From: an uncultured delta proteobacterium
GTDB taxonomy: Bacteria; Desulfobacterota; Desulfobacteria; Desulfobacterales; JAHEIW01
NCBI GenBank assembly: GCA_963706575.1
Contig: CAVPNL010000009.1
Location: 64,001-128,000 of the forward strand
Length of the DNA: 64,000 nt
Direction: 5' to 3'
In this document: positions 37,701 to 49,700 of the stretch, piece by piece
How positions within the stretch are numbered: the stretch's first letter is position 1
Layout: each line of letters begins with the position of its first letter
Position numbers: made by a program

Positions 37701-40700
37701 TCAAGAATTAAGTTATCTTCACAAAGATAAAGGTTTCAGGTGTCGGGTGTCAGCAAACAGATGGCAGTCGACAACGAGTAGGGTCGGCCTCTGTGCCGAC
37801 CTCTGGCCGGCGGGCGCAGAGGCCCGCCCTACTTCTGAACCTATGAACCGGAACTCTGAACCGATGTGCACTGACACCGAAAACCATTTAAATGGGCAAA
37901 TCGGTTTATTGACTTTGTCGGCTGCCTCATATATAGACGCACACTTGCAGCGGAGGACCTGCCTTTATTTGCAAGAAGGGTTTTGTATGAAAGGATTTTA
38001 AAATGAGTGATAGTGATCGTATGGCCAATGTCGAACCGGTTCGACTTGGCCCGCAAAGTCAGTTTAAGTTTAAGTGTCACCCCGGGATTGAATGTTTCAC
38101 GCAGTGCTGCCGGGATATTAATATCATCCTGACGCCCTATGATATTATTCGTCTTAAAAATAAGCTGGATCTGCCTTCCGATGAATTTTTAGCCTTATAT
38201 ACCGAAGCGCAACTGCTGGAAAAAACAGGCCTGCCGGTGATTACCCTTAAGTTTTTGGAGGAAGAAGATAAAGATGCGGACAGCAAGTTGTGCCCCTTCG
38301 TCAGAGAAACCGGTTGTCTGGTTTACGATGATCGGCCGACCACCTGCCGCTATTATCCCCTGGGTGTTGCCTCGCTAAGCCACAAGGAAGATGCGGATGG
38401 AGAGGAGTTCTATTTTTTTGTTCACGAACCTCACTGTCTGGGGTTTAAAGAAGACAAACTCTGGACGGTTAAGGAATGGCGCAAAGATCAAGGGGTTGAT
38501 ATTCACGACGAAATCAATGCGGAATGGACCGATTTGCTGGTGCGAAAGCGGTCTTTCCCGCCCAATATGCAGCTTACCGAACAGACCAAAAAGATGTTTT
38601 TTCTGGCCAGCTATAACCTGGATAAATTTCGGGAGTTTGTTTTTGAAAGTTCGTTTTTGGACCGCTACGAAGTTGAAAAAGCGACTCTTAATCGGATTAA
38701 GGATGACGAAATCGAGCTGCTAAAATTTGGTTTGACGTGGCTTAAATGGCTGCTGTTTAAAGAAGGTGATTTCAAAATGAAGGCAGACGCTGAAAAATAG
38801 GTATCTGGTCTTATTTGTTTACCACAGAGTTCACAGAGAAAAGTAGGGTGGTCCTCCGTGGCCGCCGGTTTGGGTCGGCACCCGTCTTCGCTAAAGCTTC
38901 GCCGCGCCACGCAGAGGCCGACCCTACTTTAATTAACGATTTGACCATTGGACGAAGATCAATATTCTTCGTAAGCCAACCCCTCCCAATACTTCTCGTT
39001 TTCCAGCCGCTCGGCAATATCCACATTAAAAAATTCCGCCACCGGTTGCAGTATTTCCGGTGTGGTTGCCTGCACAGTGCGCACGGCATCCAGCACGGTT
39101 TGCAATCCGTTTTGCGTCATTTTTCCCAGCGGCTGTCGGCACATCCCCGACGGCATGCCTAAAATAGACATCAGGGCTTTGTAAGCCAGCGGATTTCGAG
39201 CCCGGCAGGACACGTCACCATAAGGGGTCTGCTCGGTTGTTTTTACCGTTACCAGATTGAAAAGGGGCTCCAGGTTCTGCATCAGCGATTGGGCCTCAGA
39301 GGGGTTGCCTTCGTTGAGCAATTGAACCATTTGGGTAACCGCTTTTGGAGCCACGTTGGAGGCGACCGAGATTACCCCGGCGGCTTTGACCTGAGGGTCC
39401 GTCATCATTTCGTATGTCATGCCGTCATCGCCGGATAAAATCATAAAATCAGGCCCGCAGCATTCCCGGGTGCGCTTCATGTTATCGATGCTGGCGGTCG
39501 CTTCCTTTACCGTCCTGACATTGGGATATTCTTTATACAACAGGGCCAGATCCGGCGGAAATAATTGGGTTCCTGTCCGGCCCGGAATGACGTAAGGAAT
39601 AATGTCAAGGTCTTTATAGGCAGCCGCGATCGGGGCAACGTATTCTTTTCGAATTTCAAGGGAGCTGGGACCATTGTAATACGGCTCCACAAGCAATACG
39701 GCATCGGCCCCGACTTCAGCTGCGTGCTGGGTTGCCGCAAGGGACTCAGCGGTATTGTTGCTTCCGGTGCCAGCAATGCACAGACACTTGCCCTTGGTCT
39801 TTTGGGCAATCGTTTCGGTTACCTTATTATGTTCATCCCACGTGAGAACCGGGCTTTCCCCTGTGGTTCCAACTGCCAGAATGCCGGTGATGCCGTTTTG
39901 GATTTGAAAATCGGCCAGTTTTTCCAGGCCTTCGTAGTCAACAGCATTGTTTTTAAACGGTGTGATGATTGCGGTATAGCATCCTGCTTTCATGATAACC
40001 CCCATTGCTAGTAAATAAGCGTTAATGTGCGGCAATTATTTCTGCCGCAGTTTATGAATAAAAACGGTAGTTAAAAGGCAATTTGATGTCAAGCAAAAAG
40101 ATAAGAATGATTCAGATAGCTTGAAAAAGTCAGATTTATCCTGTACTAGCATGAAACTTGCTTCAGGCGCTTATATTTTGACAAATACAGAATTGATCCT
40201 TAATATCAGCGCCAGAAAAAAATGATAAAAGGATTCAAGTTCATGACAAAAGCCAAAAACGCAGATGAATTTATTGCCCACCAGCGGCAGGCCATCGCGC
40301 AAAATCCGGAATGCGGCAATTCCCATTACAACCTGGCAGTTGCCTTAATGGGTCAGAAACAATATGATGAAGCCGAGAAGCACCTTTATGAAGCCATCGA
40401 ATGCAGTCAGGGCCTGGTCGAAGCCTATGTTGCCCTCGGCGGGATCGCATTACAGCGCGGCGATCTTGACGGCTGCTTGGCCCACAATCGATCGGCCGTC
40501 AAAGCCAGACCCGGCTTTTCCGAGGGCTGGGGAAACATCGGCTTTATCGAACTTCAAAAAGGCAACATCGACGAAGCGATCACGGCGCTTGAAAAAGCGA
40601 CGACATTTAACTTCAGGTATGTTCAGGCCTTTGCCAATCTGGCCAATGCCTATTTAATCAAAGGCATGATTGATGAAAGCATCGAGGCCAATTTGAAAGC

Positions 40701-46700: not shown

Positions 46701-49700
46701 GATCTGATCTTCCGCATGCAAAGGGGCGTCGGAATTACCAAAGACAAAGACGGCCTCTGTTACAAAAACGTGCTGGCCACTTACACCCACATCCACGCCC
46801 TGGGTACCCCGCATTGGGCGCGGGCAATGGTTCGGAATGCAATTGCCTATCAAAAGAAAAAAGCGCAATGAAGCAGCGGTGATGGATATTGATGGGATTC
46901 GAAACGCGCTTCTTGAAAATGTGGCTTCATCGCCTGCCCGCTTAACGCCGCAGCATCTTGCAAAAACCATCTTAGAAACATACCGCCTCGATAAAACCCG
47001 CGCCAAAGCCGTGCTAAAAGGCTTAGTTGCCCGGGGCCAACTGGAATACACCTATGAGTTCGGCAGCACCTATCTGGTGAGATCTTTCAACGAACCGGTT
47101 CGCATTTCGGACCATGTGGTCGTCAGGCCGCCGGGGCGCCGATATCAGCCCGCACCCGATGAGGTGGTTATTCAAATTAAACCCGGGGCCGCTTTCGGCG
47201 ACGGCCGGCATCCGACCACACGACTTTCGGTTAAAGCCATTGAATTTCTGCTGAAAAAAGTGCGCCCGGACTGGCTGAATGCAAATGGCTCTGTGCTGGA
47301 CATCGGAACCGGGTCGGGTATTCTGGCGATTGCTGCCGTATGCATGGGGGTTAATAAGGGACTGGCGATTGATTTTGATTCCTGTGCCATTGCAGAGGCC
47401 ACAGAAAATATTGCACTCAATCATCTGGAGGGTCAGCTGGTCGTATCTGACCGCCAGTTGGATACCCTGCATCGGTCATTTTCAATGGTCATTGCCAACT
47501 TGCGCTATCCGAGCCTGAAAAATATTTATCCCCAAATTACAAAGCGAACCGATACCTGCGGCGGGGTGGTATTATCCGGTTTCCGCCTTCATGAACGGAG
47601 TGATTTGATGGATCTTTATACCGCCAAACACTTTGAATGTATCTGGACCGCCGATGAACTCGAGTGGGAGGCAGTTGTATTGAAAAAGATATAAACAGTT
47701 AGGAGAGGTGATATTCTCAGATAAAAACAAATTAAGGAACTACCAACAAAGTGCTTTGTTTTTAAAAAAAGGCCGGCATATGGGAAATGCCGGCCTTTTT
47801 ATGATTCGATCTGCTATTCTTCCTTATTCGTCTTTTGAACCCGGATGGCACTTGGCACAGGTTGTCGGCGCTTTTTTGGGCTTATATTTTTTGTTGAACT
47901 TTTTGTGACACCCCTTGCAGTTTTCATGCAGCGCTTCGGCATGATAATCTTTTATTTTTTCTTTTTTAGAAAGTTTTTTCTTGGCTTTCTTACCCTTGGG
48001 GGCTTCAGCCGCTATTTTGTGACACTCGATACACTTTTGAACATCGTCGCCTTCTTTCAGGTTGGAAAGCGGCTTGTTGTCTTTGTCATGGTGACAGTCT
48101 CCGCAGCCGTTTTTGTAGAGATCCGGATAGGCTTTGGCGTATTCTTTCTGGTGTTTTCCATGGCTAAACTCCACGACCCCTTTTTTGTGCTCCTTATAGG
48201 CCGGGTCCTCCAATTTGATTACATCCGGAGCTGTTTTAGCATAAATTCCGGCAGCAACAAACAGGGCAGCACAGCTTACAACAATCAAAACCAGCAGCTT
48301 TTTATTCATGGCTTTTTATCCCCCTCCTTTGCTCATCAATTTTCCTTTATCCATTATCCATTCTTTCCAAGCTTAGCCTGATTCCTTATCAGCCCAAAAT
48401 CATTCTGTCAATCACAAACATAGTTCCAATAAAAAGTATAACATTTTGAAATAATGTAATAAATATTTATCGGTCAAAGCTGAATTTCAGAAATTAAATG
48501 GTTGAAACGGGATTTTCCACCGATCGGGTAAAAAAGACGTTTTATTGCTGAAAAAAGACGACAAATTATTCAAAAGATATTGTTTCAGGCGGGGTTTTCA
48601 AGAGGATCATGAATCCGGCTGCCTGGAATCTAAGATGCACGCTGCTCGGCTTTGTCTTCCTCGGCCTCTGGCGCCGGCTTTTTTTTGCCGAAAAGCCGGG
48701 CACCGATAATGCTGAGCTCATACATAAGTATCAGCGGAACGGCCATCATGACCTGGGTGACTACATCCGGCGGGGTTAGGATGGCGGCGCCGGCAAAAAA
48801 TAGCAACAGCGCATATTTGCGGTTACGTTTGAGGAAGTCTACCGAAACAATTCCCAGGCGTGCCAGAAAGGTTAAAACCATCGGAAGCTCAAATACCAGC
48901 CCGAAGGCCAATAACAGCTTGGCCGAAAAAGCCAGATACTCTTTCATGGAGGGAAGGGGCCGGATGGATTCGGTGGCGAACCCCAAGAAAAATTTAAAGC
49001 CCCAGGGAAACACAATAAAATACCCGAAAAGGGCGCCGGCAATGAAAAAGAACGAGGAGAGGATAACCACCGGGGCCATCAGGCGGCGTTCTTTTTGGTA
49101 TAAGCCCGGCGCGACAAACATCCAGAATTGATACAGGAGGACCGGACTGGCCAGCATCAAGCCGGCTAGCAGCGACACTTTCAGGTAAGTGAAAAATGCT
49201 TCAGGCAGACCGGTGAAGATCAGATGATCGCCGTGTTCCATCACTTTTACCAGCGGCCGGACCAGGATATTAAACAGAATCTCTTTGAAAGCGTAAGACG
49301 CGGCGAAACCGACGCCGACCGCAATAAAGCATTTGATCAACCGGCTTCTGAGCTCTTCGAGATGAGACGTAAACGGTATTTTTTCTTCCTCAGCGATCAT
49401 CTTTTCCGGATCCCTGGTGCGGTCGTTCTTATTTTTCTGATGCGGTGCGGTCGGTGGCGTTTAATTCATCAAAGGCTTGTTTTACATTTTCCAGTTTGCC
49501 CTCTTTATCCGCTTTAACAGCCCCTTCGGCGTCTTTGCCATTCTGATCAACGTCTCCCCCGTCAGATTTGGACTCATCGGGACGTTTAAACTCAGCGGTT
49601 TCTTTTTTCAGGCTTACGGAGTCTTTGATATCTTCACCCAGACCATCGAAGGCTTTTTTTACATCAGACAGATCCTCATCAATCTGGATGGTTTCTTTAA

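Follow-up and report, generated by a model that had tools for sequence, protein, structure and literature searches.

A conserved 400-amino acid protein, here referred to as X, is encoded directly upstream of dsrA and, in many sulfate-reducing bacteria, close to the genes for sulfite reductase; it is probably not an ordinary kinase but a new factor that helps or regulates this enzyme. The reading that we tentatively prefer is that X may be an accessory enzyme or ligand-binding factor of the DsrAB module, with a fold like that of aminoglycoside phosphotransferase (APH) and choline kinase (ChoK) in which the classical phosphotransfer residues would have been replaced.

Gene layout

The window (the whole 64,000-nt stretch of DNA analysed) has the gene order TPR - X - dsrA - dsrB - dsrD - dsrN. 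The initial annotation had placed a small TPR gene ahead of X and dsrA-dsrB-dsrD-dsrN after it, and the open reading frames and profile matches agree with that layout. The genes, by position in the window, are:

38003-38800, + strand: CxxCxxCC protein (PF03692, YkgJ-like), a recurrent neighbour; PF03692 E 5.5e-8
40222/40243-40869, + strand: small TPR protein, about 206 aa when counted from M8, the gene that immediately precedes X; TPR_1 E 1.2e-29
41046-42248, + strand: X, 400 aa, the protein of interest here, whose modelled fold is atypical kinase-like (APH/ChoK-like); open reading frame and translation
42526-43839, + strand: dsrA; TIGR02064 E 7.6e-183, passing the curated cut-off
43852-44997, + strand: dsrB; TIGR02066 E 4.3e-149
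45068-45313, + strand: dsrD; PF08679 E 1.5e-28
45357-46871, + strand: dsrN-like a,c-diamide synthase (CobB/CbiA family amidase); NF002204 E 3.6e-134, with GATase_3 and CbiA domains

The TPR gene and X are separated by 176 bp and X and dsrA by 277 bp, and a promoter-like site lies ahead of dsrA in a window whose promoter count is no higher than that of shuffled sequence. Given these gaps and this site, X would not necessarily be co-transcribed with dsrAB. RNA-library contigs 90-95% identical to the window span parts of X in three of four runs, which is weak evidence since such libraries can contain DNA.

Linkage to dsr genes

Homologs of X had been reported beside dsrAB in other Desulfobacterota on the basis of 7 of 10 loci. 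When all X hits in 401 genomes of the phylum were counted, with no chosen subset, the tie proved stronger: X is present in 64 genomes, 41 of which have it no more than about 4 kb from dsrA. Sixteen of these close cases have X upstream on the same strand, 19 have it convergent beyond dsrABD, and six have it divergent; this amounts to three different gene orders across 13 families, which argues against mere inherited synteny. In the remaining X genomes, the two genes share a contig at a distance of 9-229 kb (4/64) or are on different contigs (16/64), or dsrA was not found at E<=1e-30 (3/64). X occurs in only 61 of the 206 sampled dsrA-positive genomes, so DsrAB has no general need of it.

The gene orders are TPR-X-dsrABD-dsrN, as in the window; dsrABD-TPR-CxxCxxCC converging on HEAT-X, with HEAT and X overlapping by 4 nt in locus L033; and dsrBA divergent from X-dsrN. 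Locus L049 has the order dsrD-dsrN-X, and dsrN directly adjoins X in several other lineages. At least one of these partner genes was present in 36 of the 49 loci examined; ten X loci in which the flanks extend about 7 kb either way have no dsr or partner gene, their neighbours being unrelated. A further sample comprised the 80 best X loci from named MAGs, and here a TPR gene is upstream of X in 74 and dsrA is downstream in 66. In the six loci without TPR, X begins no more than about 300 bp into the locus; nine of the 14 loci without dsrA stop within about 560 bp past X, and in the other five the sequence continues for 5.7 kb or more beyond X but contains no dsrA.

Neighbouring genes

Beyond dsrABD, the recurrent neighbours of X are the small TPR protein, a HEAT-repeat protein, the CxxCxxCC protein, and dsrN. 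The HEAT gene was found in 17 of 49 loci and is directly upstream of X in all four loci read by Pfam. Of the 80 related loci, 46 have a CxxCxxCC homolog upstream; in the other gene orders it is found beside X or TPR. The TPR proteins share 58-90% identity among 47 of the 80 loci, and 41-55% with four more distant loci. Linkage of TPR to dsrAB is wider than that of X: the TPR gene adjoins dsrA in 33 of the 57 X-lacking genomes with both places listed (hand tally), and also in seven genomes where X sits elsewhere.

It is conceivable that X has a function unrelated to DsrAB and that its position is a by-product of genome organisation, for example if X rides with a TPR gene that is the real dsr-linked gene. 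The TPR-dsrA pairs apart from X, the three X genomes without dsrA, and the ten wide loci with unrelated neighbours would all fit; however, X has remained close to dsr genes across three rearrangements, even as the gene directly beside it changed (dsrA, dsrD, dsrN, HEAT, or CxxCxxCC), and no TPR gene is directly beside X in the divergent and dsrN-adjacent orders (loci L038, L040, L045, and L049). We consider this explanation very improbable.

Family and fold

The description of X as a new unnamed family holds. The best Pfam match (E 0.044) is noise, NCBIfam gave no match at E<=1, a search of PDB chains with the single sequence was empty at E<=10, no PDB sequence matched the family profile below E 0.48, and none of 43 members matched a kinase-clan Pfam family at E<=5. 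There are 2319 homologs at E<=1e-3 (90% clustering) and 895 clusters at 50% identity (E<=1e-3; 601 at E<=1e-30), and wherever the source gives a name it is 'hypothetical protein.' No fused forms that point to a partner were found.

A protein-kinase-like fold had also been claimed, and is supported with a change in the closest structures. The AlphaFold2 model has a pLDDT of 92.3 and pTM of 0.91 (85.3 and 0.85 in the earlier model). With Foldseek, every one of the best 50 matches was again a protein kinase or pseudokinase, with E-values from 8e-6 to 9e-5 and query TM-scores of 0.26-0.33. A VIA structure search (Z 13.0-9.5 among the matches listed) placed five APH/ChoK-type small-molecule kinases at the top, with Bud32 tied at rank 6 and RIO and Ser/Thr kinases lower, so the closest structures are of the APH/choline kinase type and not Ser/Thr kinases. 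The best match was APH(2'')-IVa (4dbx; Z 13.0, rmsd 3.6 A over 217 residues); together with homoserine kinase (2ppq) and corramycin phosphotransferase (8agy) the range was Z 13.0-12.5 and rmsd 3.6-4.8 A over 217-236 residues. X shares with these proteins (PF01636 and others) the two-lobe fold, strands 1-5 and helix C, the hinge, and the C-terminal helical part.

At the profile level the similarity is weak. Alignment of X with 25 APH proteins by hhalign gave P 8.4e-4 with a probability of only 23.8%. The matched part consists of helix C, the hinge, and the helix that follows; helix C and the hinge are in register, as is the 'P149' motif. An extended run pairs G96 of X with the APH P-loop Gly; its C-lobe part is unreliable, as the APH HGD and DWE motifs fall into gaps. 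Weak as it is, the match anchors helix C and the hinge in the alignment.

Conserved residues

Residues were counted in an alignment of 193 X sequences. The N-lobe register is backed by hhalign, and C-lobe equivalences were assigned from the order of secondary-structure elements. Thirteen positions are identical in all 193, including G96, E178, H180, G240, D241, R259, and D299, and W172 is kept in 192; the invariants also hold in ten members that are not linked to dsr. The relevant regions are:

41319-41345, + strand: P-loop-like motif E-K-H-G-x-x-Y-H, codons 92-100, in the loop between model strands E85-92 and E100-108; K94 192, H95 177, G96 193, Y99 190, H100 179 of 193
41439-41441, + strand: helix-C acidic residue, codon 132; E in 169 and D in 24 of 193; pairs with the conserved helix-C Glu of the 25 APH proteins (hhalign P 8.4e-4)
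41742-41771, + strand: loop at the kinase catalytic-loop position, x-P-W-H-H-A-A-G-D-F, codons 233-242, between strands E230-232 and E242-247; W235 193, H236 179, H237 178, G240 193, D241 193, F242 192 of 193; putative equivalent of HRDxxxxN
41811-41822, + strand: putative position of the DFG/Mg-binding Asp, codons 256-259, after strand E250-255, with no acidic residue; 256 I109/V45/T36, 257 T162, 258 V122/A63, then R259 193 of 193
41934-41960, + strand: second invariant cluster R-L-D-R-x-D-G-x-G, codons 297-305, after the hydrophobic helix 278-295; R297 190, D299 193, R/K300 193, G303 193, G305 172 of 193

Six residues had been called invariant from ten members; D241 and D299 are fully kept among the 193, K94 (192), R297, and H383 (190 each) are nearly so, and H236 is found in 179. 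Their proposed role as a kinase catalytic set, with K94, an HxxxxD loop, and D299, is not supported. K94 is in the glycine-rich loop between strands 1 and 2; strand 3 has N118, A120, and S/T122 but no Lys; the catalytic-Asp position would be H236 and the Asn position D241; and D299 comes 58 residues after D241, past the long hydrophobic helix. The glycine-rich loop has no GxGxxG, G96 alone being kept. By this mapping, the strand-3 Lys, catalytic Asp, and Mg-binding Asp would all be missing in 193 of 193 sequences, with an alternative invariant set (K94 in the P-loop, H236, D241, R259, E178, H180, and D299) in place of the canonical residues. The kinase reading thus holds only in part, and a kinase is possible only in an atypical form.

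Such a form would be an active protein or small-molecule kinase using K94 for the strand-3 Lys, H236/D241 as the catalytic loop, and D299 as the Mg-binding Asp, with DsrAB, DsrC, DsrD, or a siroheme-type cofactor as target. The C-terminal helical part resembling the substrate-binding part of APH/ChoK, the retained helix-C acidic residue, P-loop Gly, and small strand-3 residue, the conservation of K94 and D299, and the direct proximity to dsrN in several lineages are consistent with this, but neither canonical Asp position is acidic in any of the 193 sequences, an Arg stands beside the Mg site, and both GxGxxG and any match to a kinase-clan Pfam family are lacking. D299, moreover, comes after a helix whose position recalls that of the buried helix F, and in known kinases the end of helix F is remote from the ATP site. 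An active kinase of this kind is therefore unlikely.

Somewhat less doubtful, though still not probable, is the reading of X as a pseudokinase without catalytic activity. It would act as a scaffold or allosteric subunit that may still bind a nucleotide (ATP, AMP, or APS) as a signal and that, together with the TPR or HEAT protein, assists in assembling or regulating DsrAB. Loss of all three classical residues by mapping and the constancy of protein-interaction repeat proteins as neighbours (TPR 74/80, HEAT 17/49) point this way, and DsrD, in the available text of PMC8794893, is a precedent for a small non-enzymatic DsrAB activator. Against it, the many invariant His, Asp, Glu, and Arg residues (H180, H236, H237, D241, E178, R259, and D299) are unusual for a pure scaffold and resemble an active or ligand site. 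Judged from the alignment, conservation of X exceeds what a purely structural scaffold would seem to need.

Proposed role

As an accessory enzyme or ligand-binding factor, X is predicted to be cytoplasmic and to keep the interlobe cleft, where it would bind a nucleotide or other anionic small molecule through K94, G96, and Y99 of the P-loop, A120 of strand 3, the acidic residue 132 of helix C, and W172 of the hinge. Any chemistry would depend on the His236-x4-Asp241 pair and on R259 at the place of the kinase Mg-binding Asp, with contributions from E178, H180, and possibly D299. X may act on or with the products of the linked genes, namely DsrAB/DsrD, the cofactor amidase DsrN, and the TPR, HEAT, and CxxCxxCC proteins. 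The genes that travel with X suggest a part in maturing DsrAB, supplying its cofactor, or controlling it, and not in classical Ser/Thr or small-molecule phosphorylation.

Comparison with known systems

X has the neighbourhood of dsrAB, dsrD, and dsrN in common with known Dsr accessory genes (dsrD, dsrN, dsrC, dsrT, and dsrMKJOP). In the available text of a Dsr synteny study, only known Dsr proteins are mapped and X is not among the proteins treated (PMC10504309); nor is it treated in PMC10591310, PMC13047784, or PMC13293266. Unlike APH proteins, X does not match the APH Pfam model at E<=5 and, by the putative mapping, has no strand-3 Lys/Arg, HxD Asp, or usual Mg Asp, with Asp in place of Asn. 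Its other differences are three inserted strands (177-203) that follow the hinge, 84 additional residues at the N-terminus, and the dsr gene neighbourhood.

In WNK kinases the catalytic Lys has moved into the glycine-rich loop, and the catalytic Asp and DFG Asp are kept. The only invariant basic N-lobe residue of X, K94, is likewise in the P-loop region and not in strand 3, but it precedes the conserved Gly instead of following it, and X is without the catalytic and DFG Asp. Kinase folds with altered catalytic residues are known from proteins with other chemistry. SelO is an AMPylase with a kinase fold, and COQ8 is an atypical kinase or assembly factor that retains the classical Lys and Asp residues. 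SidJ is described in the available text of PMC6858067 as a kinase-fold glutamylase with non-kinase chemistry. X may work in a similar way, but membership is not claimed: none of SelO, SidJ, or UbiB/COQ8 is among the 50 best VIA matches listed, and no sequence relation to X was found.

The nearest named ESM Atlas cluster to X is DUF6206 (PF19709), with a language-model feature score of 0.93 and 176 shared features. There was no hmmscan match between the two, hhalign of 193 X sequences against nine members gave a probability of 0.5% (P 0.11), and genome G000, when searched, had no DUF6206 gene above the cut-off. Going by the motifs of the nine members compared, which are of the classical kinase-like kind, DUF6206 is probably another kinase-fold family.

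The dsr locus and the X family

The protein considered here (X, 400 aa, without a family name; residue numbers are those of X) is encoded between a small TPR protein and the genes of the dissimilatory sulfite reductase.

Features of the dsr locus, in window coordinates
38003-38800, + strand: CxxCxxCC/PF03692 gene (YkgJ-like, "zinc- or iron-chelating"), upstream of the TPR gene
38959-40035, - strand: DHDPS-family gene, between the CxxCxxCC and TPR genes
40222-40869, + strand: small TPR protein
41046-42248, + strand: X, no known family
42526-43839, + strand: dsrA
43852-44997, + strand: dsrB
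45068-45313, + strand: dsrD
45357-46871, + strand: dsrN-like CobB/CbiA-family amidase
46837-47694: PrmA-like methyltransferase, in the downstream region of dsrN

The TPR homologs are about 206 aa long, in agreement with a start at 40243. A sequence scan gave no excess of promoter-like sites (8 versus 7.5 in shuffles) or terminator-like sites (9 versus 8.9).

The initial annotation placed X in no known family, and searches of Pfam, NCBIfam, and PDB sequences bear this out. The best Pfam E-value for X is 0.044 (FolB), far short of the cut-off, NCBIfam has no match at E ≤ 1, and PDB chains have none at E ≤ 10. A 43-member X profile found nothing below E 0.48 among PDB sequences; two helical proteins from that search (E 0.48 and 1.6) are regarded as noise. 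None of the 43 members matches a kinase-clan Pfam family at E ≤ 5, and the APH profile (PF01636) is matched neither by X at E ≤ 1 nor by any of the 43 at E ≤ 5. Among 90%-identity clusters there are 2319 relatives of X at E ≤ 1e-3, none with a Pfam domain, and the only name that any source gives them is "hypothetical protein". The family profile matches 895 of the 50%-identity clusters at E ≤ 1e-3 and 601 at E ≤ 1e-30. No fused or longer form of 701-2000 aa scored, which by the search tool's own note is weak evidence. As a family X is new; its fold is a known one in an unusual variant.

In an even sample of 401 genomes from the phylum of the window, X is present in 64 genomes and in 45 of 255 genera; the genome of the window itself has a single copy. 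The dsrA gene (TIGR02064) is found in 206 of the same 401 genomes, including 61 of the 64 with X, and the three that have X and no dsrA at E ≤ 1e-30 are complete genomes of one family (G001, G183, G299). Since X occurs in 61 of the 206 sampled dsrA-positive genomes (about 30%), it is best described as an accessory, lineage-dependent part, and its absence from the other 70% or so argues against an obligatory role.

Fold of X

The AlphaFold2 model of X, built from a 43-sequence alignment (A1), has a pLDDT of 92.3 and a pTM of 0.91. An earlier Foldseek search of the PDB had returned kinases throughout, and its repetition did so again: among the best 50 matches there are only protein kinases and pseudokinases (E 8e-6 to 9e-5), with low TM on the query (0.26-0.33) and rmsd of 9-21 Å. 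An independent structure search of 48,161 chains (VIA) yielded 50 best rows that are kinases or kinase-like by their entry titles, with Z of 13.0-9.5 over 173-268 aligned residues. The top match was APH(2'')-IVa (4dbx; Z 13.0, rmsd 3.6 Å, 217 residues), next came corramycin phosphotransferase (Z 12.7) and type-II homoserine kinase (Z 12.5), then 25-hydroxysteroid kinase, N-acetylhexosamine kinase, and Bud32. APH(7''), MTR kinase, choline and ethanolamine kinases, RIO kinases (Z about 10), and PknB (Z 9.8) ranked lower. The VIA rows thus place the fold in the APH/choline-kinase branch of the protein-kinase-like superfamily, which narrows the kinase-like fold first proposed. In the model, the order of elements is that of classical kinases.

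Structural elements in the model of X
85-92: strand 1, followed by a loop
100-108: strand 2
111-120: strand 3
123-142: helix C
151-158: strand 4
164-171: strand 5, followed by the hinge
177-203: three-strand insertion
206-222: helix
230-232: strand 6, followed by a nine-residue loop
242-247: strand 7
250-255: strand 8
261-263: strand 9, followed by a less confident loop
278-295: long hydrophobic helix, followed by a short hairpin and four C-terminal helices

At fold level X therefore belongs to the protein-kinase-like superfamily, as judged by its two lobes, its element order, VIA, and Foldseek. In sequence, hhalign of 193 X proteins against 25 APH (PF01636) proteins from genomes of the phylum gave a probability of 23.8% (P 8.4e-4), with X 127-239 aligned to the APH segment of helix C, strand 4/5, hinge, and next helix. 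The nearest named ESM Atlas cluster, DUF6206 (PF19709), was rejected as a sequence-level relative: hhalign with nine members taken from genomes gave a probability of 0.5% (P 0.11), and hmmscan found no PF19709 match among the X members.

Residues at the kinase active-site positions

Residue counts refer to 193 X sequences. Equivalences in the N-lobe come from the model and hhalign, and those in the C-lobe from the order of elements rather than from superposition. An extended hhalign was set aside for the C-lobe, since the APH HGD and DWE motifs fall in gaps and the alignment cannot place D299 or the catalytic loop.

The loop between strands 1 and 2 (93-100) reads E-K-H-G-x-x-Y-H, with K94 in 192, G96 in 193, and Y99 in 190 of the sequences. 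The glycine-rich loop had been left unchecked in the initial annotation; neither GxGxxG nor an APH-type G-x-S/N motif is present in this loop, where G96 alone is invariant across the 193 sequences. Strand 3 (111-120) carries N118 (N in 131, S in 27, T in 17) and A120 (189/193), followed by S/T122, and no sequence has a basic residue on this strand where the AxK/VAIK lysine would be expected. In the extended hhalign, N118 falls on the APH Lys/Arg column and G96 on the APH P-loop glycine. Residue 132 in helix C is acidic throughout (169 E and 24 D) and is aligned to the APH glutamate by hhalign.

In the C-lobe, the loop before strand 7 reads P-W-H-H-A-A-G-D, with H236 in 179 and D241 in all 193 sequences. 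By element order in the model, H236 would take the position of the catalytic Asp and D241 that of the Asn in the H-x-D-x4-N loop. After strand 8, positions 256-258 are I/V/T, T/A/S, and V/A in all 193 sequences, so that no acidic residue stands where the Mg-binding Asp (DFG/IDxG) would directly follow the strand, and R259 is invariant (193/193). Further invariant residues are W172 in the hinge, E178 and H180 in the first insertion strand, R297-L-D299-R/K300 and G303 after the hydrophobic helix, and H383.

The kinase reading of the initial annotation is thus upheld in part: the fold is kinase-like, but "kinase" as a functional label lacks support in the classical sense. By this mapping, with the C-lobe positions assigned by element order, the whole X family (193 sequences) has lost the defining trio of active kinases (strand-3 Lys, catalytic Asp, Mg-binding Asp). 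A real, if odd, kinase would agree with the fold and is improbable given these losses. X falls within the operational definition of a pseudokinase (kinase fold with at least one of Lys/Asp/Asp lost), a label that is silent on any other activity. A dead scaffold or regulator would account for the losses and is a somewhat unlikely reading; against it stands the replacement set of polar residues, whose conservation is as strict as that of an active site would be.

Linkage to the dsr genes

All 64 X places were compared with the dsrA places, without selection of a subset. X lies within about 4 kb of dsrA in 41 of the 64 genomes, which span 13 families and show three orientations: on the same strand and directly upstream of dsrA, with gaps of 0.3-0.6 kb (16), on the opposite strand just past dsrA-dsrB-dsrD (19), or head to head with dsrA (6). 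Four genomes have both genes on one contig at distances of 9 (locus L047), 31, 128, and 229 kb, 16 have them on different contigs, and three have no dsrA. Several of the 16 different-contig cases are contig breaks within the same arrangement: dsrB-dsrD adjoin X in L007, TPR-X stands at a contig end in L019, and HEAT-X-CxxCxxCC-TPR does so in L021. In L049, a further such case (genome G319, contig C18, 3931-6780), dsrD-dsrN-X lie on one strand, with the start of X right after dsrN. The 632-aa open frame at this locus is the X frame extended upstream over the end of dsrN and no demonstrated fusion. The L049 genome belongs to a family that otherwise lacks X.

A second sample comprised the best 80 of 551 loci, from named MAGs of Desulfobacterales and allies with 38-78% identity to X; these are close kin, so the 80 are not independent. 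The order TPR-X-dsrA-dsrB-dsrD-dsrN is nearly unchanged among them. The TPR gene is present in 74 of the 80, and in the remaining six X starts within about 300 bp of the start of the locus. Among the 14 loci without dsrA, nine end within about 560 bp past X and five extend 5.7 kb or more beyond it and still show no dsrA; the other 66 have it. One of the 66 (L093) has a dsrA match of only 264 nt (7429-7692) after TPR-X, with about 6 kb of downstream DNA present, which may reflect masked sequence, a dsrA remnant, or a rearrangement.

The linkage to dsr genes first noted from a few loci is therefore stronger than reported, with X no more than about 4 kb from dsrA in 41 of 64 genomes and dsrA present in 66 of 80 further loci. 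X stays with the dsr locus while its immediate neighbor changes, a pattern to be expected from a functional tie and not from inherited gene order. That X has no functional tie to Dsr is accordingly very improbable, even with the three genomes that carry X and no dsrA, and with the 10 of 49 distant loci, each with about 7 kb on either side of X, that have none of TPR, CxxCxxCC, HEAT, or dsr genes and whose neighbors share nothing.

Neighboring genes in other lineages

For more distant lineages, eight wide loci were scanned with Pfam and 49 loci were searched by tblastn. In 36 of the 49, X has one or more of the TPR, CxxCxxCC, HEAT, and dsr genes beside it. Three patterns recur. In one, dsrA-dsrB-dsrD-TPR-CxxCxxCC (the last about 210 aa) converges on a HEAT-X operon, with dsrN 1-3 kb off; in L033 the HEAT and X genes share 4 nt. 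In another, seen in seven genomes of one family, dsrB-dsrD is followed by X on the other strand and then by CxxCxxCC and HEAT. In the third, dsrB-dsrA is divergent from X-dsrN, X being 50-75 bp upstream of dsrN.

The CxxCxxCC (PF03692) protein is upstream in 46 of the 80 close loci, and in 18 of the 49 it lies beside TPR or X in other gene orders. Directly upstream of X, several lineages encode a HEAT-repeat protein (PF13646, PF13513, PF03130; about 360 aa), which occurs in 17 of the 49 loci overall. The genome of the window has one weak homolog of it (24% identity), on another contig and unlinked.

CxxCxxCC and HEAT-repeat proteins at other loci, in locus coordinates
L033, 6461-7090: CxxCxxCC protein
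L002, 2775-3365: CxxCxxCC protein
L033, 8179-9255, - strand: HEAT-repeat protein
L034, 8085-9182, - strand: HEAT-repeat protein
L032, 183-1277, + strand: HEAT-repeat protein
L037, 7543-8634, - strand: HEAT-repeat protein

Linkage to dsrAB is more widespread for the TPR gene than for X. A profile of 51 TPR orthologs matches 197 of the 401 genomes at E ≤ 1e-25. Among 57 X-lacking genomes with both places listed, a hand tally gives 33 that have TPR within 4 kb of dsrA: directly upstream in 16, just after dsrAB(D) in seven, divergent in seven, and at 3.3-3.5 kb in three. It is also beside dsrA in seven genomes with X elsewhere. At shared loci the TPR protein is the more conserved, with 58-90% identity in its alignment (A2) versus 38-78% for X, and it has an invariant cysteine (C24 of A2). 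A prediction of an X-TPR complex from A1 and A2 scored 0.00 against a mark of 0.32 in a run without controls, and carries no weight for binding or against it.

In 12 loci listed as having no dsr gene beside X, a set that included L047 and L049, the neighbors showed no shared theme. Several other genes were observed near X. ThiS adjoins X in L035 (6254-6547) and ThiF-ThiS is near it in L042 (9019-10043), these being two of the three genomes with X and without dsrA. RelA/SpoT and DegP-type genes are near X in L041 and L048. Two tandem dsrN-like amidase genes directly follow X in L040 (8666-11497) and L045 (4829-7700), both from genomes with the divergent order.

Possible roles of X and its neighbors

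DsrAB, with a gene set that has been under catalogue for decades, is the central enzyme of microbial sulfate/sulfite respiration, yet what its small neighbor DsrD does was settled only in 2022 (PMC8794893). In the portions of the literature available, neither a kinase-fold protein nor this TPR protein is mentioned with dsrAB, and supplementary tables may list such genes as "hypothetical". The accessible text of the Dsr synteny study PMC10504309, which maps known Dsr proteins only, has no such protein, and a text search for kinase and TPR had the same negative outcome as before; nor is such a protein reported with dsrAB in the accessible part of the 950-genome survey PMC10591310. The TPR protein of PMC7774982 is a different one (a YcaO-TPR fusion).

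The reading we prefer, tentatively, is that X is an atypical-enzyme or ligand-binding accessory protein of the DsrAB module. The kinase cleft would be kept and would bind a nucleotide or another anionic ligand, and X would carry out non-classical chemistry with the His236/Asp241 pair and Arg259; alternatively, X may act as a ligand-dependent partner in the maturation or control of the reductase. Its neighbors, which comprise two kinds of repeat protein, the siroheme amidase, and a Cys-rich metal-binding protein, favor assembly or cofactor supply over signalling. A more specific proposal is that X is a new type of enzyme on a kinase scaffold, with His-x4-Asp and with Arg in place of the metal-binding Asp, and that X, TPR, HEAT, CxxCxxCC, and DsrN form an unrecognised system for DsrAB maturation or control; this is unlikely as a whole. 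Such an enzyme might load or modify the siroheme/siroamide-[4Fe-4S] center, or might serve in nucleotide-dependent (ATP/AMP/APS) switching of DsrAB.

The X family, the more widespread TPR gene, and the recurrent HEAT and CxxCxxCC genes beside dsrAB suggest that parts of reductase assembly, cofactor supply, or regulation have yet to be recognised. X would give kinase biology a bacterial family with all three classical catalytic residues swapped for another invariant set, a pattern seen before in members of the fold later found to have new chemistry. X could also mark physiological differences among groups of sulfate reducers.

Expression and further genes of the locus

RNA-library contigs from three studies cover parts of X in three of four runs, including a 617-nt contig of run X7 at 41532-42148 within the X gene; all four runs cover the TPR and dsr genes. 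These contigs are mostly 90-95% identical to the window and so come from relatives. In run X1 the bins across X (40936-42339) have a depth of 0 or about 1, contig depth being unable to rank genes. Since libraries can contain DNA, the coverage amounts at most to a hint of transcription for relatives of X.

The DHDPS-family gene has the same place in 63 of the 80 close loci and in L031, the reason for its presence in a dsr neighborhood not being evident. Beyond dsrN and the PrmA-like gene, a class III cytochrome c gene and tatC/tatA-type genes lie at 47824-48309 and 48630-49836, both on the - strand.
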